A program made the translations under genes and the position numbers. Source: Minisyncoccota bacterium (GTDB lineage Bacteria; Patescibacteriota; Minisyncoccia; Phycocordibacterales; UBA1006). From it: DNA of 64,000 bases. The stretch is taken from assembly GCA_028697455.1 (NCBI GenBank), contig JAQVEZ010000002.1, positions 25,486 to 89,485 of the forward strand. Reading direction: 5' to 3'. The stretch's first letter is position 1; every line of letters begins with the position of its first letter. Shown piece by piece: positions 3,238-55,357 of the stretch. Under the pieces are notes generated by a model that saw only the letters and a list, made by a program, of their open reading frames with translations, made no database searches and had not been told where the DNA came from.

Positions 3238-3726
3238 TCATTCCTGGCTATAAACAGTATTTTCCTGTTCTTGTACTAAAACAAGGTGTCCTTTTTCCCA
3301 AATTCGATGTTCATCTCGGATAATAATTTCTACTCTTCCTTCAAATGAATGCCACCACAAAAGCGGTTCGTTTCCTTTTTTATTCTTGGAACTCAAATAA
3401 AGAGAAAGAGAAAATCTTTCTTCGGGAAAAAGAGGAATTTCTCCTAATAAAATCTTACTGTAAAGAATATCAAAAGCCTGAAAGAGCGGAATCCGTAAAA
3501 AATTTTCAAACCTTCCAATATCTCCGTCGGAATACGTCCCTTTATCAAGGGGGAGAAAAAACGGCTTTACCTTAAGAAATTTCTCTTGAGAGACGAGATC
3601 CCAATGAAACCATGTGTAGATATCTTCATCAAAACGAAATGAGTAGGTGTTATTCTCAAGAAAGCTTATCAGGCGATGAGTCTTCTCTCTCATGCTAGTC
3701 ATTTTTAAAAACTTATTTATATACAA
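3238..3726 (-). CDS. Hypothetical cytoplasmic protein, member B of the tandem paralog pair
   Basis: 162 aa, clear paralog of 2704..3216 with the same conserved blocks. No signal peptide and no recognisable domain. Confidence 0.6.
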   Translation of the reverse strand: MYINKFLKMTSMREKTHRLISFLENNTYSFRFDEDIYTWFHWDLVSQEKFLKVKPFFLPLDKGTYSDGDIGRFENFLRIPLFQAFDILYSKILLGEIPLFPEERFSLSLYLSSKNKKGNEPLLWWHSFEGRVEIIIRDEHRIWEKGHLVLVQEQENTVYSQE

Positions 3727-3744
3727 AATAGCACAAAGAAAAAT

Positions 3745-4401
3745 TTAAGAAAGAATGTTCCCTTTCCTTTTTCTCTTTTTGAGTTTCTTCTTTCCAAACC
3801 AATAAATCAAAAACCCAAGAATCGCAAAGAGCACGATTTTTTCTAAAATATCAAAAAAATTTGATATCCCAAGAAGCTGACTTCCCATAAACCACCCAAC
3901 GAGCCCCATGAGAACCGCACCCAAAAAAACTCCGAGGAGTGTGAGCACCGCATAACGAAGATATGACATCTTGCTCATACCAGCATACAAAGCAAAAGCA
4001 ACACTTGGAACAAAAGGCACGGCCCTCAAAAAAACAAAAAGAAAATCTCGATAAGGGTTTCCCTCTCCATAACCAAAAAGATATTCAACGTCACGCTTTC
4101 GCACTCCAAGATATTTTCCGTAACGCTCAACAAAAGTCATCCCCAAGAGCCGAGCAAGATAAACATAAGGAAGAGACCCAACAAGCACCCCAAGAGCAGA
4201 GGCAACGCCCACAACCCACAAAAAAGAAAGAAAGGATCCAGGTTCAAAAGGAACCCCCGCAAACAAAATCATTCCAGCAAAACCCTGAACGAGAGTCGAA
4301 GGAATCAAAGCAATAAGCTCCTCAACAATTCCCGCAGAAAAAACTCCCAAAAAACCATAGTTCCCAATCCAAAGTTGAAGTGACTGAATAATAGCGTCCA
4401 T
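3745..4401 (-). CDS. DedA / SNARE-associated (TVP38/TMEM64) family membrane protein
   Basis: 218 aa polytopic membrane protein; VVGVASALGVLVGSLPYVYLARLLG...FVERYGKYLGV is a typical DedA core; basic C-terminal tail. Confidence 0.75.
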   Translation of the reverse strand: MDAIIQSLQLWIGNYGFLGVFSAGIVEELIALIPSTLVQGFAGMILFAGVPFEPGSFLSFLWVVGVASALGVLVGSLPYVYLARLLGMTFVERYGKYLGVRKRDVEYLFGYGEGNPYRDFLFVFLRAVPFVPSVAFALYAGMSKMSYLRYAVLTLLGVFLGAVLMGLVGWFMGSQLLGISNFFDILEKIVLFAILGFLIYWFGKKKLKKRKRKGNILS

Positions 4402-4502
4402 AGAAACCCAAGTATAGCACGAGAATCTTTTTCTCTAAAAGAGACTTGACAAAAAGATTAAAAAGGCTTATAATAGTATTAAGAACTTTAAAATTTAAAA
4501 AA

Positions 4503-5411
4503 ATGAAGAAACTTATTTTTGCAATCTTCGCAGCTATCGGAATGATATTTGCGGGGAACGTGCTCTCTTGCAAGAGCAATGACACCAAAAACACCGATTT
4601 GGTAGTTATCACCGGGGAACCCACTCCCAAGGAGTGTCCGCCGGTTGTTATCACTGCAGACCATGAGAGAAAGGATATCCTCGAGATCATCCTCTCGCTC
4701 AAAGGATTTGACCAACCCGTTGAATGGGTTATCGTTGACAAACCGGTTCAAATCCTCTACCCAAACCAAAATGGTTCTGGTTTTATTGAGGGGTTCAAGG
4801 TGAATGGGGTAGAAATACCTTATTCGAGAACCTTGTTGATAAAGACAGAAAAAATTCTCAGCAAATTTTCTGACCACTCGGTGAGTGAGCAGAAAGTTCT
4901 CGTTGAGGATTTGATCTGTAGTGAGCAGCTGAAAATGCTCAAGAGCGAGCTTGAAAAAGCAAGATGTGATGAACAACCAACACTTGCTCCAGTTCCTCCG
5001 GTAGTACCAGATGACGACAATGATGATGGTTGCTGGTTATGGCCATTCCCTTGGTGGTTATGGGTCCTATTAATAGCAGCCTTGCTCTTGTTTCTTTTTT
5101 GGTTACTAAACCGACTAAGAGATATGGATGATGGAGAGAATGAGGAGGTACAACAAAATCACTTTGTTGTACCTCCAGCTCCAGCTCCAGCTCCAAGTGA
5201 TGAGGAAGGAGATCCTTGCAGAGAGTGCAAGGATTACAATAGCAAATGCTGTTGCTGCAGGGAAAAGGAACTTTCAAAAAGATGGGAGAGCGCTATGCTT
5301 GCCCTGTCTTTGAGAAAAGAAGGTTCTTTCTCTGCAGAAATGCAGGATGGAGAGTTTAAAATCTCTGTCTCAGCAGAACAGCCCCGGGAAACCTCTCACC
5401 GGAAGAAATAG
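4503..5411 (+). CDS. Hypothetical lipoprotein with one internal Trp-rich transmembrane helix, a PAPAPAP repeat and a CxxC...CCCC cysteine cluster
   Basis: MKKLIFAIFAAIGMIFAGNVLSC is a lipobox-type signal peptide. I chose the start at ATG 4503, not the tracked 4446. The TM segment is CWLWPFPWWLWVLLIAALLLFLFWLL; the C-terminal part carries CRECKDYNSKCCCC. Confidence 0.5.
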   Translation: MKKLIFAIFAAIGMIFAGNVLSCKSNDTKNTDLVVITGEPTPKECPPVVITADHERKDILEIILSLKGFDQPVEWVIVDKPVQILYPNQNGSGFIEGFKVNGVEIPYSRTLLIKTEKILSKFSDHSVSEQKVLVEDLICSEQLKMLKSELEKARCDEQPTLAPVPPVVPDDDNDDGCWLWPFPWWLWVLLIAALLLFLFWLLNRLRDMDDGENEEVQQNHFVVPPAPAPAPSDEEGDPCRECKDYNSKCCCCREKELSKRWESAMLALSLRKEGSFSAEMQDGEFKISVSAEQPRETSHRKK

Positions 5412-39961: not shown

Positions 39962-41473
39962 TTATACTTTGTGTTTTCTGTGTAACTTCTTAACTTCCTC
40001 CTGTTCCAAAATATCCTTTTGGTGTTTAGCCTGCTCACCAAGCTCTTGCAATTCTGTATCAGACAATTCATCAAATGCTCGCACTCGTGGCTCCAAGTAC
40101 TCACGGGTGTTTTTTGTTGGGTCTTCAAGAACCTCTTCAAGAAGTGCGTGCAGTATCCACCCCATCCTTTTACCCGGTTTCATCCCCATTTCACCAATCA
40201 TAATATCACCATTAATTTTGAGCATCCCAACACTAATGGGGTCGCGTAAGACTTCTTCAATCATTGCATGATATTTCCGCAAGCGATATGGTTTTTCTTT
40301 TGGACGCCCTGTTCCGATACGATCACAGGTTCGCAAATCCATAAGGTCCCAAATCATTTCTTCTCCAACATTTGCAACCATACGACGAACAGCTGACAAA
40401 GTAATCGCATCCGGATCAGAAAAAAACATATGATAGCGGACGAGCTTTTCTACCTTATCAGAAAGCTCCTTAGGAAATTTTAATCGCTTCATAATATCAC
40501 GTGACATATTGGCTCCGATAACTTCGTGCCCATAGAACGTCCACTCTTTGGTTCCTCGTCCATTTGCTTTTCGTCGTGATCGAGGTTTCCCAATGTCATG
40601 AAACAATGCTGCAAGTTTCACATGAAGTGAGTAAGATTTGTTAACAGCATGTTCAAAAGACTTGAGATTATGCTCAAAGACATCATAGATATGCGCTCCC
40701 CCTTGGTCACAATTGATCCCCTCTTCAAGTTCAGGAACAATCAATGAAAGCATGGTGATCTTCTGCATTAACAAAATTCCATCAACAGCATAATCAGCAT
40801 CAATCAATTTCAAAAACTCATCACGAATACGTTCGGGTGAAACATGTTTCATGAGAGGAATATTTTTTCTCAAAGAACTCAGAGTTTCTGTTTCACAAAT
40901 GAAACCGAGTTGCGCAGAAAAACGCACAGCACGCATCATGCGAAGGGCATCCTCAGAAAAACGTTCATCAGGATTTCCAACGGTACGAATAACTCCATTT
41001 TCAATATCATGAATTCCTTCATATTTATCAATCAAGGTTTCAGAAAAAGGATCGTACGCAAGGGCGTTCATCGTAAAATCTCGCCGCTTTAAATCTTCGG
41101 ATATGTGAGTACTGAAGGAAACCGTATCAGGTCTCCGCTTGTCGCTATAGTGTCCTTCACTACGATAAGGAGTAATCTCAATGGCATAATCAGGGGTGTC
41201 TTTTTCAAGCTCCTTATTAATAATACCGACTGTTCCAAAATTATTTTCATAGACAACTCGCCGATCAGTTTGTTCAAAGATAGCAATAATCTGTTCTGGA
41301 GTTGCATTGGTGGTGATATCCCAGTCATGAGGATTTTTTTTCATGATAAGATCCCGAACACACCCACCAACGATAAAACCTTCATAACCATTATTATGAA
41401 GTTGTTCAAGTGTCCAAAGAACATTTTTTGGAATATTTTTTTTTGAAATCGTCTTTTGTCGACTCATACTCAA
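39962..41473 (-). CDS. cca: CCA-adding tRNA nucleotidyltransferase / poly(A) polymerase family with HD domain
   Basis: FIVGGCVRDLIMKK...DWDITT (PolB-type NTase head), RRDFTMNALAYD, HD-domain motif HDIGKP. Confidence 0.8.
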   Translation of the reverse strand: MSMSRQKTISKKNIPKNVLWTLEQLHNNGYEGFIVGGCVRDLIMKKNPHDWDITTNATPEQIIAIFEQTDRRVVYENNFGTVGIINKELEKDTPDYAIEITPYRSEGHYSDKRRPDTVSFSTHISEDLKRRDFTMNALAYDPFSETLIDKYEGIHDIENGVIRTVGNPDERFSEDALRMMRAVRFSAQLGFICETETLSSLRKNIPLMKHVSPERIRDEFLKLIDADYAVDGILLMQKITMLSLIVPELEEGINCDQGGAHIYDVFEHNLKSFEHAVNKSYSLHVKLAALFHDIGKPRSRRKANGRGTKEWTFYGHEVIGANMSRDIMKRLKFPKELSDKVEKLVRYHMFFSDPDAITLSAVRRMVANVGEEMIWDLMDLRTCDRIGTGRPKEKPYRLRKYHAMIEEVLRDPISVGMLKINGDIMIGEMGMKPGKRMGWILHALLEEVLEDPTKNTREYLEPRVRAFDELSDTELQELGEQAKHQKDILEQEEVKKLHRKHKV

Positions 41474-43347: not shown

Positions 43348-43995
43348 TTATTTTACATTTTCAGGTCGTTGGATATTCCAAAGCCTTCTTGCTTTGGCTG
43401 CACGTCCCGCTTCAAGTCCTTTGGCCTGGAGTTTCTTTTGGTACGAACGAAGTTGCATTTGATATCGCTCATAAAAAGACTGCGCAAGAAGAGAAAGATT
43501 CTGATACAAAGGTTCAAAAAGTTTCATTTTTTGATTTCCATCCCTGTGGGCATGCTCCCAAAAATACTCTCGATACTGTTTTCCTTTTTCGATATCCATA
43601 TACCCATTACATTCTGGACACAGCGGACGATAATCACATAGAGCCTTTCCTATTTCTGCCCAAGCAATAACTCTCAAGACAAAATATTTCGTTCTATGGA
43701 GACGTGGGCTAGTAAAAACTTTTTTATCTCGTGTACGAACAATAACCCAAGCAGCATCAGATATCGCAGCATTGTTAAACGAAGATAAAATCGTCGTAAG
43801 AACAAGGCATTCATAATGATTGTTGGTGTAAGAAAAACGTATTTCTCTCCCCTCTTGAAAGCGTGGCTCCTCAAGCCCAAGTCGTTGAAAATCCTTTTCA
43901 AGATCTTGATCAGCCATCTGGTGAAATCCCAGAAAAGCGAGTGATCTAAAGAGCTCTTGAATTTGATCCTCTTGAGGTAAAAATTTCTTTGGCAT
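43348..43995 (-). CDS. Hypothetical protein with a CPEC zinc-ribbon-like motif
   Basis: 215 aa; CDYRPLCPECNGYM. Confidence 0.4.
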   Translation of the reverse strand: MPKKFLPQEDQIQELFRSLAFLGFHQMADQDLEKDFQRLGLEEPRFQEGREIRFSYTNNHYECLVLTTILSSFNNAAISDAAWVIVRTRDKKVFTSPRLHRTKYFVLRVIAWAEIGKALCDYRPLCPECNGYMDIEKGKQYREYFWEHAHRDGNQKMKLFEPLYQNLSLLAQSFYERYQMQLRSYQKKLQAKGLEAGRAAKARRLWNIQRPENVK

Positions 43996-44086
43996 ATATA
44001 ATTGTTTTGATTTAACCCCAAGGTACTATCTCGTAGGAAATTGTAAATAGGAGAATAAAAAAAACACCCCCTTAAACAGGAATGCT

Positions 44087-44115
44087 AATACTTTATGTCC
44101 ACCCGCCAGGACTCG
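44087..44115. repeat. Direct-repeat copy of the 3' end of tRNA-Arg plus 10 nt of its downstream flank. The partner copy at 44286..44314 overlaps the tRNA.
   Basis: aatActttatgtccacccgccaggactcg (44087-44115) vs aatTctttatgtccacccgccaggactcg (44286-44314): 28 of 29 nt identical, 199 bp apart. Confidence 0.6.
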
Positions 44116-44296
44116 GTCACCGTTCTGGATTTTTCTTCGAGCAAAGCTCTTGAAAAACCTCATCGCCTCGACCCCGCCGCTTGCGACAAGCACTCGCTAT
44201 CGCTCGTCTTGTATACCGCTTCGCTTTTTTCGAGCCTTGCAGGAAGACTAAAGAAAAAACCACCCATACTGACATATGAGTAGTTAATTCTTTATG

Positions 44297-44368
44297 TCCA
44301 CCCGCCAGGACTCGAACCTGGAATGACGGTTCCGAAGACCGTAGTGATATCCATTTCACCACAGGTGG
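44297..44368 (-). tRNA. tRNA-Arg (anticodon TCG)
   Basis: Minus-strand cloverleaf CCACCTG-TG-GTGAAATGGATATCAC-T-ACGGT CTTCGGA ACCGT-CATT-CCAGG TTCGAGT CCTGG-CGGGTGG-A; anticodon loop CTTCGGA; 72 nt, no encoded CCA. Confidence 0.8.
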
Positions 44369-44626
44369 AATGAATCTAGTATAAATCTATTTTGAGAAAC
44401 CGCAAGAAAAAACTCTAAAAAAGACATGTCCCAAAAAGACACTCATTTAAAGAGAAAGGGCTGTCTCTCCCGTTTTTTACAATTTATAAGCCTATTCAAG
44501 CCTGTGGATAACTTTGGGTATAGAGGGGATAAAAGACAATATTTGTTTTTTGAAAAAAGAAGTCTTTTTGTCCAATAAGCTTGCCTTTTAAGGTTTTCAG
44601 GTGGATTAATGATATAATCGTTTCAT

Positions 44627-45025
44627 ATGAAACAATTCTCCTCAGAAAAGCAGAAAATAGGTCTTTACGGGGAAAATATAGTGTCCTTATGGCTTACAAA
44701 GAACGGCTTTTCTTTAATAGAAAGGAATTATGGGACACGCTATGGAGAAATAGATATTATTGCTCAAAAAGGAGAGGTTCTTTATTTTATCGAGGTCAAA
44801 AGTATTCTTTCTGAAAATACTGATTTTGTTTCCCGTGAAACACAATATAACCCAGCTGAAAACGTTTCACGTGAAAAGATGAAAAGAATGAAGCGAACCA
44901 TTGAGATATTCTTATCAGAAAGAAAAATTCGTGGAGCATTTCAGATCGATGTCTTTGTTGTCTTTATCGACAAAAGAAGTATAAAACACAAGATAAATCG
45001 TATAGAAAACATCATCCTCCCATAG
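44627..45025 (+). CDS. yraN: YraN (UPF0102) family predicted endonuclease
   Basis: GLYGENIVSLWLTKNGFSLIERNYGTRYGEIDIIAQKGEVLYFIEVK, then RMKRTIEIFL, are the YraN signature blocks. Two parS-like palindromes lie inside the 3' part of this CDS. Confidence 0.7.
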   Translation: MKQFSSEKQKIGLYGENIVSLWLTKNGFSLIERNYGTRYGEIDIIAQKGEVLYFIEVKSILSENTDFVSRETQYNPAENVSREKMKRMKRTIEIFLSERKIRGAFQIDVFVVFIDKRSIKHKINRIENIILP

Positions 45026-46096: not shown

Positions 46097-46169
46097 TCGG
46101 GGTGTGGTGTAACGGCTAACATGCTTGTTTTGGGTACAAGTGACTCCGGGTTCGAATCCCGGCTCCCCG
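46097..46169 (+). tRNA. tRNA-Pro (anticodon TGG)
   Basis: CGGGGTG-TG-GTGTAACGGCTAACA-TGCTTG TTTTGGG TACAAGT (anticodon loop TTTGGGT)-GACT-CCGGG TTCGAAT CCCGG-CTCCCCG-A; followed by a hairpin terminator (AAACATCAGATAA...TTATTTGATGTTT). Confidence 0.85.
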
Positions 46170-46367
46170 ACAGAATTTAAACATCAGATAATTATTTTAT
46201 TTGATGTTTTTATTTTGCCAGAAAGGAGATGGGATTCGAAAAAAGTCGCCTGCGAAGCCTGATGTTTGAGGCAACGAAAACATCAGTAGGCGACGGCGGG
46301 GTTGAGCGAATGAGATTATATTAAGCCTTGAAAAAGCGAAAATATAATCCATGAGGGTGACCGAACT

Positions 46368-46386
46368 CGGCTCCCCAACAAAATTT
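46368..46386. repeat. Imperfect direct-repeat copy of the tRNA-Pro 3' end (partner copy at 46159..46177, within the tRNA and its flank)
   Basis: cggctccccAacaAaattt vs cggctccccGacaGaattt (17 of 19 identical), 209 bp apart. In both this and the tRNA-Arg case the copy is preceded by GGTGACCGA. Confidence 0.5.
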
Positions 46387-46413
46387 CGACTAGCAAATAA
46401 AAACAAAAAAGGC

Positions 46414-52869: not shown

Positions 52870-52930
52870 AAGCCTTCGGGCTTTTTTCTTTTACAGAAAA
52901 GAAAAATACGATATGATTAAAGGTAGTTAT

Positions 52931-55357
52931 ATGAAATCTTTTTTAAGAAAATTCTTTCTTGGGCTTATTGTTGCACAGGCTCTTTTTCTTACTCCTTTTT
53001 CTGTTGAATTAAAAGTAAATATTCCAAAAACAGAAAATTCTCTTTTTGCTGTTCAGGAAGAAAAAAGCTCACAATCTCTTGTTGAAATATCTCCCGTATT
53101 ACATACAGCAAATGCACTTTACGGTGGTGGCTGTGATGGGGGCAGCCCCACAACATGGGGGGAATGTATTCTTTCGGGGATACTTACTTTCTATCATTAT
53201 CTGTTCTTTACAACTACTCAGATTCTCGCTGCTATTGCCGCCTATTTTATGGACGTAATTATCAAATTCTCAATCAGCAGTAGTTTTTATCGAGGAATTG
53301 GAATTATCGAAGTTGGTTGGGAGATCTTACGAGACCTTTCAAATATCATCTTTCTCTTTGCCCTTCTCTATATTGCCTTTCGTTTTGCGATTAATGGGAT
53401 AAAAGATGGTCAAGCAAAAAAGAGTCTCATCAATGTTATTGTTGCAGCCCTCGTTGTCAACTTTAGTCTTTTTATTTGTTATTTCCTCATTGACGCATCG
53501 AATCTCTTTGCGCATGTATTTTATAACAGAATAACAACCGAAGCCTCTATATACCCAACTAATAATGGAGCGGGGCAAGAAGGATTAGCGACGGTTCTTA
53601 ATGATATTAAATCCCCAGCGACAGCCTTTCTTGCAGCTATCAACCCGCAACGACTTCTCTTAACAGATGCTGATATCGCAACTAACGGAGGGATGATCAA
53701 AATCCTTTCTATGATCATGGGGATGGCAATTGTTAATGGTATTGCGATTTGGGTATTTTTGTCGGTTGCACTTCTTTTCTTAACGAGAATTTTGGGGCTT
53801 ATTATTCTCTCGTTTTTATCTCCTCTCGCTTTTTCGAGTCTCGCCATCCCAGAGATGAAGAAACAAAAATACGTTGGATTTGATGATTGGTTAAATAATT
53901 TTCTGAGAATGTCTTTTGCTGCGCCAATTTTTACCTTCTTTTTATGGGTAGCAACAAAATTTGCAAGTAATGAAGGGGTGATAGGAACAATCCAAAGAAA
54001 CTCCGGCGGGGATTGGATTTTGGATATGCTCAATGTCTTTCTGGTAATGGCGCTCATTGCAGGAATACTCGTTATGAGCAAGAAAATAACACAAGACCTT
54101 GCAGGAAACTTCTCAAAACAAATCACCGGAATGATCGGAAAAGCTGTTGCAGGAACAGCAGCTGTCGGGGCGCTTGCTGTTGCAGCTCCTGTGGCAGGGG
54201 TAGGAATGCTGGCACGTGCAGGAGCTGGAGTAACCTCTGCAACGGGGGGCCTTGCAAGGGGTGCACGAGCTCTCAACATGACTGGAGCTGCTGATAGATT
54301 ACAAAAAGCACAGGAGAAATTAAAGAGCAATAGATTTGGAACAACGGCAGCAAATGCTGGGAGGGCTCTTATGTCGACAAAACTCAATGTCACCAAAATT
54401 CCTGGCTTCAGCCAGCTTGCGGGAAAAGAGCTCACCAGCATCGTCGGTAAAGTACCTGGGGTTGGGGTTTCTGCGCGGGAGCTTGAACGAAAGGCTGTTC
54501 TTTATGGAATGAGAAATGTTCCTCTCTATAGAGACAAGGAAGGCAAGTGGAAACGTAACTTCCTTACAGGAAGACAACATCAAGAAGCTGAGCTCGCTTA
54601 CGATAAAGAAAAAGAGAAGATCCGAGGAGAACGTGGAAAATGGCAAGAAGATCTCAAAAAAGAACGAGATAAATTTGAACAAGAAAAGGTTGTCAATGCA
54701 ATGCGCGATAAGGTTAGACGAGATACAAAACTCGATCCAGAGCGAAAAGCAGAACGAGATGCTCACAATGCTGTTCTTGAAAACTCAGACCTTGTCAAAA
54801 AAGAAACCGAAGCGATGGATGCTCTCAAGGGAGAATTGGCAAACCTTACTGCTCAACTTAATGCAGCCAAAGGTTCTGGAAATGATAATCTAGCAGATAC
54901 TATTCAAATGGAGATCGATGGGGTGAAAGTTAGAAGAGCTGCTCGAGAAAAAGGAATTGAGCTTTCTGGTGGAAATGCAGAAAACATGATTACTGATAAG
55001 GTTAATGGGGGTATGAGTCGAAAAGAAGCCGTTAAGGCAATTATAGAAGAGAACAAGGATGGTTTCGGAACAACTACTACTTATCATGCTAACGGTGGAG
55101 TTGATGTGACAGCGGAGACACTCCAGGGAAGACATCAACACGAGAAAAACCTTCTTAATGAAGAAGAAAGAAATCTTATTAGGGCAGAAATTACAAATCT
55201 CAGAACTCAGGCTACCGCAGCAAGGACCGCCGGAAGAGATGATGAGGCAGATACGCTCAACAAAAAGGCTTCTCATCTTTCACAAAAAATGGAAAGTATG
55301 CTTACCGATTCTTCAAAGATTGATGAAGCAGCAAATAAAGCATCGAACAAAAAATAA
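52931..55357 (+). CDS. VirB6/TrbL/ConG-like polytopic membrane protein with a long Ala/Gly-rich coiled-coil C-terminal domain
   Basis: Signal/TM1 then about 7 further TM helices in the first 380 aa (for example ILAAIAAYFMDVII, LINVIVAALVVNFSLFICYFLI, MIKILSMIMGMAIVNGIAIWVFLSVALLFL), followed by a roughly 430-aa hydrophilic coiled-coil region. The size (about 810 aa) and topology match Gram-positive VirB6 homologues such as ConG and TcpH. Confidence 0.5.
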   Translation: MKSFLRKFFLGLIVAQALFLTPFSVELKVNIPKTENSLFAVQEEKSSQSLVEISPVLHTANALYGGGCDGGSPTTWGECILSGILTFYHYLFFTTTQILAAIAAYFMDVIIKFSISSSFYRGIGIIEVGWEILRDLSNIIFLFALLYIAFRFAINGIKDGQAKKSLINVIVAALVVNFSLFICYFLIDASNLFAHVFYNRITTEASIYPTNNGAGQEGLATVLNDIKSPATAFLAAINPQRLLLTDADIATNGGMIKILSMIMGMAIVNGIAIWVFLSVALLFLTRILGLIILSFLSPLAFSSLAIPEMKKQKYVGFDDWLNNFLRMSFAAPIFTFFLWVATKFASNEGVIGTIQRNSGGDWILDMLNVFLVMALIAGILVMSKKITQDLAGNFSKQITGMIGKAVAGTAAVGALAVAAPVAGVGMLARAGAGVTSATGGLARGARALNMTGAADRLQKAQEKLKSNRFGTTAANAGRALMSTKLNVTKIPGFSQLAGKELTSIVGKVPGVGVSARELERKAVLYGMRNVPLYRDKEGKWKRNFLTGRQHQEAELAYDKEKEKIRGERGKWQEDLKKERDKFEQEKVVNAMRDKVRRDTKLDPERKAERDAHNAVLENSDLVKKETEAMDALKGELANLTAQLNAAKGSGNDNLADTIQMEIDGVKVRRAAREKGIELSGGNAENMITDKVNGGMSRKEAVKAIIEENKDGFGTTTTYHANGGVDVTAETLQGRHQHEKNLLNEEERNLIRAEITNLRTQATAARTAGRDDEADTLNKKASHLSQKMESMLTDSSKIDEAANKASNKK

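Follow-up and report, generated by a model that had tools for sequence, protein, structure and literature searches.

Structured elements with a tRNA-matched closing helix behind tRNA genes of uncultured Patescibacteria

The 64-kb stretch of DNA analysed in this work (the window) carries an intact tRNA-Arg(TCG) gene at 44297–44368 on the minus strand, detected by ARAGORN and by the Rfam model RF00005 (58 bits), in which CCA is not encoded. The genes surrounding it are of a housekeeping nature, comprising those for ribosomal protein S15, a methyltransferase, an exonuclease III-like protein, a CCA-adding enzyme, an FAD-linked oxidase, YraN, dCMP deaminase and ClpP, and no phage-type integrase was found among them. 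Homologues of the YraN-family neighbour are labelled Patescibacteria by their sources, and YraN-anchored protein scans of GTDB genomes and JGI metagenomes returned distant relatives only. The CCA-adding enzyme (PolyA_pol and HD domains) is encoded at 39962–41473 on the minus strand, 3 kb from the tRNA-Arg, tRNA-Pro and tRNA-Gly genes, and in a related locus (L034) the gene for this enzyme directly adjoins tRNA-Arg. The tyrosine recombinase that a preliminary description of this DNA had pointed to 7 kb from the tRNA is present as stated, and is of Xer type: it passes the cut-off of the XerA model and scores 217–220 bits on the XerC and XerD models, and is read as a housekeeping enzyme.

Other features of this region were recorded alongside. 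A 215-aa ORF at 43348–43995 (minus strand) with a CxxC...H motif has no match in Pfam, PHROG or NCBIfam; a word-indexed search returned its own cluster only, and positional homologues of 221–224 aa exist in L021, L023 and L025. Between tRNA-Arg and yraN, a motif of ~38 nt on the minus strand (TGTCTTTTATCCCCTCTATACCCAAAGTTATCCACAGG, ~44478–44515) is almost invariant in all related species and encloses the only perfect DnaA box in the window (TTATCCACA, 44503–44511). The cumulative GC skew of the window reaches its minimum near 48–50 kb, with a local dip at 44.4 kb. The intergenic motif may be an origin-related or DnaA-regulated site.

Read along the minus strand, the locus consists of tRNA-Arg (44368–44297), a hairpin T1, a 152-nt segment (44248–44097), a trailer and a second hairpin T2. 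T1 (44252–44285, hairpin portion 44285–44258) has a 12-bp stem and a U-run resembling an intrinsic terminator, in agreement with the hairpin terminator first described behind this tRNA. T2 (44055–44086 on the minus strand, hairpin portion 44086–44063) ends in a run of eight U and forms a second terminator-like site that closes the unit. The reported direct repeat of ~29 nt of the tRNA 3’ end was recovered as TAAT[A/T]CTTTATGTCCACCCGCCAGGACTCG, with copy 1 at 44285–44314 and copy 2 at 44086–44115 matching at 29 of 30 positions (25 nt exact). Copy 1 begins at CGAGU in the T-loop of tRNA-Arg and comprises the last 18 nt of the tRNA and 12 nt of trailer. No further copy exists in the 64 kb, and 0 are expected by chance.

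The 152-nt segment is closed by a helix, P1, whose 5’ strand (GUCUUCCUGCAAGGCUC, 44232–44248, minus strand) was placed by folds, duplex energy and covariation and pairs with the tRNA-3’ copy; a conserved UUUAGU lies just 5’ of it. The 3’ strand (44097–44114) falls within repeat copy 2, which repeat search, fold and covariation all delineate, and it copies the T-stem 3’ strand, the acceptor 3’ strand and the discriminator base of tRNA-Arg, with the remaining 44086–44096 copying the tRNA-Arg trailer. The P1 duplex has an energy of −24.1 kcal/mol, equalled by only two other non-trivial sites in 128,000 positions. Between the two strands lie a junction and P2 region (44174–44231, minus strand), which in a six-sequence alignment contains the conserved blocks UCGAAAAAAG and GCGAAGC and is the most variable part of the element, and a hairpin P3 (44115–44173, minus strand), defined by fold and by covariation of helices 4–6. 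The base of P3, GGUCG/UGACC, is invariant, including a G–U pair present in 6/6 sequences, and the inner stem sets a U-rich strand against an A-rich strand.

The insert was reported to be more GC-rich than its surroundings, and the 133-nt core indeed has 53–55% GC (maximum 54.9%) compared to a window average of 38.6%, making it the second-highest GC peak in the window and the highest among non-coding sequence. The GCTTG..CAAGC hairpin and the inverted repeat quoted at that time are likewise present, the inverted repeat being imperfect. The highest GC peak (63%, 54159–54291) falls in coding sequence, within a Gly/Ala-rich part of an 814-aa ORF (52913–55357, plus strand), and is not an RNA gene. 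As the preliminary description had held, the element has no integrase; neither an integrase nor a remnant of one was found inside or beside the repeats, and no ORF within the element matches a protein family. An independent Logan assembly is identical to the window over 43762–44640 and three further haplotypes carry the element, which therefore does not represent an assembly artefact.

These three haplotypes (L014–L019 and L020) belong to the same species and differ from the window at 11–20% of third codon positions and 6–10% of intergenic positions, compared with 0/174 (L014 group) and 5/174 (L020) positions across the core and T1. The longest identical run in 4.4 kb is 44092–44373, reaching exactly from repeat copy 2 through the 5’ end of the tRNA. 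Four of the L020 substitutions fall in the core, two of them wobble-preserving in the closing helix and two in loops, and all are compatible with the structure. Compared with L020, L014 and L009, the T2 hairpin (44063–44086) is preserved through several compensatory substitutions in its stem.

Strain L009/L010, also of this species, shows 97% identity to the window on one flank and 88% on the other, and possesses neither the element nor the second repeat copy. The Arg site of L009 (Logan SRR31966184) carries instead a 1.37-kb cassette (3520–4885) whose two genes, a TrmB-like gene and a 151-aa ORF, are near-ORFans, and behind tRNA-Pro, where the window carries the second copy described below, a NUDIX gene (1183–1563) follows directly. 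The two-gene cassette has a native-like GC content of 31–36% and almost no homologues among 5.8 billion proteins. The 215-aa ORF of the window and the TrmB-like gene are both near-ORFans and gave no island context. The right end of this L009 cassette was considered as a candidate decayed attR, which was rejected for lack of significance. T1 is ~40% diverged between the window and L009 despite the identical adjacent tRNA. Empty sites consisting of the tRNA, one terminator and the next gene occur with local gene order kept in five other species (L002, L021, L023/L024, L025 and L034). The Arg-linked feature is therefore a lineage-restricted, polymorphic insertion; five related species and one conspecific strain do without it, which indicates that it is dispensable.

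A covariance model (R1) was built from Arg-linked copies alone, with just the closing helix P1 and hairpin P3. R1 scores the Arg-linked member of the window (44090–44252, minus strand) at 214.8 bits, finds the Arg-linked copy of L030 and returns three new members: L030 5057–5208 (71 bits, E = 7e-15), L020 4622–4796 and window 46221–46384 (25.7 bits, E = 3e-4 to 6e-4), the sequence of the last having been left out of model building. All three are located directly 3’ of a tRNA-Pro(TGG) gene and a hairpin. In the window this gene lies at 46098–46171 on the plus strand (ARAGORN and Rfam), again without an encoded CCA, and is followed by an A/U-rich hairpin and by the second member on the same strand. 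A refined model, R2, scores the two window members at 169.4 (Arg-linked) and 113.8 bits (Pro-linked) and identifies no members in the loci of the other species, those with empty sites, or in L009. A blastn-short search of the window with the Arg-linked core missed the Pro-linked copy, which the covariance model alone recovered. The reading as a one-off remnant, which the preliminary description had made dependent on there being no other copies anywhere and no transcript, is thereby contradicted by the copies at tRNA-Pro in the window and in L030 and L020; related genomes, where that description had proposed to look, provided both such copies and empty sites. Gene callers place an ORF of 69–83 aa, probably spurious, on the opposite strand over the Pro-linked copy (46197–46406 in the window; L001 2797–3048).

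The tRNA-Arg(TCG) gene of L030 (GCA_020428615.1) is followed by the same layout as that of the window, namely a hairpin, a ~135-nt GC-rich segment, a tRNA-3’-like end and a hairpin. Relative to its own tRNA, this tRNA-like end has a deletion of 2 nt and one G replaced by A. The 60 nt that precede it resemble the window element significantly (global z = 3.6), which the 5’ halves do not. The Pro-linked copies terminate in CGAAUCCCGGCUCCCCGAC, the 3’ end of tRNA-Pro, copied without change in L030 and L020 and in decayed form in the window (46362–46379), and their 5’ strand is complementary to the tRNA-Pro 3’ end. What was described as a ‘direct repeat’ is thus one strand, the 3’ one, of the closing helix P1, built from the upstream tRNA, and at the level of sequence the identity of P1 follows that of the adjacent tRNA. 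In common with the Arg-linked copies, the Pro-linked copies contain the core blocks UUCGAAAA(A/G)AG, GCGAAGCC, GGCGGGGUYGAG..AUGAG and GGUGACCGA, and the conserved core runs from the junction UCGAAAA(A/G)AG through the GCGAAGC(C/G) block, the variable P2 hairpin, GGCGGGGUYGAG..AUGAG and the P3 hairpin to GGUGAC. Core identity is 70% between window-Arg and L030-Pro, 70% between L030-Pro and window-Pro and 58% between window-Arg and L030-Arg, which hints that a core lineage may have moved between tRNAs with the helix rewritten.

Conservation of the structure was assessed on the six-sequence alignment, which covers two species and four loci and was fitted to the model, a procedure that favours structure. 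In it, 95.8% of pair cells hold standard pairs compared with 77% in shuffles and 34–53% when partners are slid, and both sides have changed in 20 of the 34 pairs (P1 10/15, P3 10/19); none of 500 shuffles matches any of the covariation measures. The bias is partly offset by the slid control and by an independent RNAalifold run, which recovered P1 and P3, added a hairpin P2b and classed 23 of 42 pairs as compensatory. The pairings of P1 and P3 are conserved via changes on both sides, as in structured non-coding RNAs generally, and in this respect the earlier suggestion of a structured RNA is supported; its transcription is a predicted part of the interpretation below. The covariation emerged only after the Pro-linked copies were added. 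An earlier hand alignment of P1 between the window and the Arg-linked L030 copy, read as compensation, was discarded, as the L030 duplex reaches −14.3 kcal/mol with its own 3’ strand and −17.3 kcal/mol with the true tRNA end. Similarly, a view of the GC-rich core as an array of decayed tRNA-3’ or att copies was dropped after local alignment against dinucleotide shuffles (p = 0.5–0.9).

Approximately 20 G–U cells lie on the tRNA-sense strand, with one G–U pair invariant in all six sequences, and the fold z-scores of three elements are −4.40, −3.63 and −2.05 in the sense direction versus −2.99, −2.88 and −0.55 in antisense. The first pair of values belongs to the Arg-linked L030 copy and the last to the 152-nt Arg-linked element of the window, which by itself folds only marginally better than shuffles; a value of −4.46 obtained for the window copy was inflated by inclusion of the terminator and was set aside. 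Together the G–U cells and z-scores favour the tRNA-sense strand, although the G–U pairs would be equally tolerable as G–T pairs in folded single-stranded DNA. The copies form a conserved family of structured elements linked to tRNA genes in uncultured Patescibacteria, each member being positioned directly behind tRNA-Arg(TCG) or tRNA-Pro(TGG) between two terminator-like hairpins of the same strand, with a T1 equivalent upstream of every one.

Searches against known families returned no counterpart. A covariance-model search of Rfam 15 gave tRNA only at the gathering threshold and nothing further at E ≤ 10 locally or E ≤ 1 across L030, and thus no match to a known RNA family, including 6S, SRP, T-box, the ribozymes and the bacterial Y RNAs (YrlA). 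ARAGORN detected nothing credible, whether it was run with introns permitted, as a tmRNA search or with its thresholds relaxed. A tmRNA was rejected on this result, on a third acceptor-like pair that is U–U or C–G, and on reading the sequence, where no plausible tag frame is evident; an intron-containing or permuted tRNA gene was rejected because no cloverleaf formed at thresholds of 80–90% with introns allowed. Only ~17 nt precede the core, so that the D and anticodon arms are absent. Comparison by blastn with phages and plasmids produced short chance matches only, and pattern scans of IMG/VR two chance matches only, both to GC-rich contigs (L026 and L037). A miniature inverted-repeat transposable element was rejected given that terminal pairing varies with the local tRNA, the repeat is 30 nt and the two copies in 64 kb are both by tRNAs. 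The repeat was also considered as a dif-like site or Xer target, and this was rejected, the likeness being a partial resemblance of one arm judged by eye. No description of such elements was found in the literature, and with neither Rfam nor the literature offering a match the family is previously undescribed.

The explanation we prefer, with somewhat better than even confidence, is that these are tRNA-linked structured elements of ~150 nt, most likely non-coding RNAs in the tRNA sense, that carry a tRNA-matched closing helix and come and go as cassettes. The unit would be transcribed by read-through of T1 or from an unrecognised promoter, ending at T2. T1 resembles an efficient terminator, which counts against read-through, and no sigma-70-like promoter was found between T1 and the Arg-linked copy of the window. 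In the transcript, P1 would constitute a ‘minihelix’ imitating the stacked acceptor and T stems of the neighbouring tRNA: its 3’ strand would supply the 3’ half of the T-loop, the 3’ strands of the T-stem and acceptor, the discriminator base and the trailer, its 5’ strand the complement, and the ~115-nt core would occupy the place of the T-loop. On account of this mimicry and the shared discriminator base and trailer, RNase P, RNase Z and the CCA-adding enzyme could conceivably treat the element like a tRNA. As the tRNA-Arg and tRNA-Pro genes are CCA-less they need the CCA-adding enzyme, which could then act on the element too. The repeat common to the element and the tRNA gene would allow precise loss by recombination as well as occasional re-homogenisation. 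The junction left by precise loss is predicted to read tRNA-Arg 3’ end followed by ...ATAAAGTATTAGCATTCC, and that of an excised circle core end, repeat and ATTAACTACTCAT....

Within this framework the closing helix may serve a further purpose. The elements could be tiny retargetable mobile cassettes, each a conserved RNA scaffold whose closing helix contains both strands of the end of the adjacent tRNA gene. Much like a guide or bridge, this helix would determine at which tRNA 3’ end a recombinase or nuclease supplied in trans brings about insertion or homing. We regard this as a tentative proposal, unlikely on balance, that would explain why the helix is rewritten behind a different tRNA.

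Comparable in standing, and likewise improbable, is a non-autonomous miniature mobile DNA element that enters tRNA genes at the T-loop and 3’ end, mobilised in trans by a recombinase whose gene lies elsewhere. Its helices would either work at the level of DNA, as an attC-like folded site or as attP arms with a structure of their own, or specify a guide that matches the target for this recombinase; it overlaps with the preferred explanation, since an element-encoded RNA and mobility are compatible. Trailer sequence forms part of the repeat, as it would in an attL/attR pair, and the precise empty sites in five related species, together with the unrelated ORFan cassettes at both sites of a strain of the same species, also favour this reading. 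The block of low divergence and repeat copy 2 share exactly the same outer boundary, some repeat copies are perfect while others have decayed, and the closer relationship of the window-Arg core to L030-Pro (70%) than to L030-Arg (58%) suggests a change of target tRNA. Measured against integrative elements, the partial tRNA-3’ direct repeat and the empty site are found here and the integrase is not. The neighbours are housekeeping genes and the sole recombinase is of Xer type; the two copies in 64 kb both lie by tRNAs with none elsewhere in the window, the IMG/VR, phage and plasmid searches gave chance matches only, and a ~200-bp circle without cargo is an implausible vehicle. A mobile DNA element also offers no account of the rewriting of the internal 5’ strand for a new tRNA.

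Far less probable is that the insert is an inert scar, in which a larger integrative element at the tRNA-Arg 3’ end has been reduced to its att arms and the other copies are related attP sites. Fragments of tRNA genes left by integration are common (PMC9897764), and cis-mobilizable elements (CIMEs) are by definition bounded by attL and attR and devoid, through loss, of genes for integration and transfer (PMC5704250). The repeat and the empty sites agree with such a scar. The preliminary description had taken the repeat for such an attL/attR footprint of integration. The insertion polymorphism with empty sites in relatives upholds one part of that claim, whereas the second repeat copy has proved to be the 3’ strand of P1 and covaries. 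Both P1 and P3 covary, the 5’ strand tracks the identity of the tRNA, and neither covariation nor the complement of a tRNA end would be expected of an att arm, which makes an inert scar unlikely. In two species the same core follows two different tRNAs; its sequence is GC-rich within AT-rich, streamlined genomes and far more conserved than neighbouring third codon positions, and decayed internal att copies are without statistical support. A CIME was rejected as well because no related element occurs in the phages, plasmids or IMG/VR searched and because the interior is a conserved structured core and not decayed genes.

It is more doubtful still that the element is a cis-regulatory leader, an attenuator or riboswitch-like device with T2 as expression platform for the downstream co-oriented 215-aa gene. 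The minus-strand order in the window (element, T2, 215-aa ORF) suits this idea, and the 5’ half of T2 resembles the P1 5’ strand (repeat family D3), so that an alternative pairing is possible. A co-oriented downstream gene is nevertheless lacking at three of the four family loci: the Arg-linked copy of L030 faces a convergent Mrr-like gene and the Pro-linked copies precede unrelated or opposite-strand genes. The homologous gene of 221–224 aa, moreover, is present in sister species that do not have the element. That the locus encodes a small protein is a negligible prospect: a 62-aa ORF (44095–44283, plus strand) spans the element in the window, as another ORF does in L030, but it has no Pfam match, its sole match in 1.84 billion representative proteins is a repetitive artefact, its start codon lies within the antisense of the tRNA copy and substitutions follow base pairing and not codons, and the element has no coding potential.

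If the family is real, the poorly understood Patescibacteria contribute a new class of RNA that mimics tRNA, with a mimicry that is not fixed but copied from the adjoining tRNA gene. In genome annotation, partial tRNA copies near tRNA genes routinely count as integration scars and mark the limits of genomic islands, a reading that in that case would be wrong here. The presence and absence of the element, with gene cassettes at the same sites in another strain, points to an unexplored role for the sequence downstream of tRNA genes as a site of exchange in very small genomes.

Among known systems, attL/attR pairs and CIMEs share with the element a partial tRNA-3’ copy running from the T-loop into the trailer with the intact tRNA on one side, no integrase between the repeats, empty sites in relatives and a hot spot that contains foreign cassettes in other strains. 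The element differs in its size of ~200 bp, in that the repeat copy is a strand of a covarying helix faced by sequence complementary to the tRNA end, and in that the same core, its helix rebuilt, occurs behind another tRNA; the searches revealed no parent ICE, IME or phage. The IS110 bridge RNA and the IS200/IS605 omega RNA consist of a structured scaffold with a segment matching the local insertion site, and the element similarly combines a conserved scaffold with an insertion-site-matched segment. In contrast to these, none of the copies contains or adjoins an IS110-type or TnpB/IscB gene, the two target strands form a closed helix and not open guide loops, and the Rfam families searched gave no match. 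Integron attC sites are short (60–140 nt) imperfect inverted repeats with structure conserved over sequence, are associated with cassettes and are recombined by a tyrosine recombinase in trans. Unlike attC, the element conserves its core sequence with P1 alone varying, is tied to tRNA genes and has no R’/R’’ boxes, cassette array or IntI. The remaining comparison is with tRNA mimics, such as the tRNA-like domain of tmRNA, YrlA, viral 3’ tRNA-like structures and mascRNA. As in these, the paired ends form an acceptor-like helix continuing into T-stem-like pairs, and the element ends with a tRNA-like discriminator base and trailer, which makes the enzymes that process tRNA ends plausible partners. 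It differs from them in having no complete T-arm or D-arm analogue, G3–U70 pair or tag frame, and the element alone copies whichever tRNA gene adjoins it.
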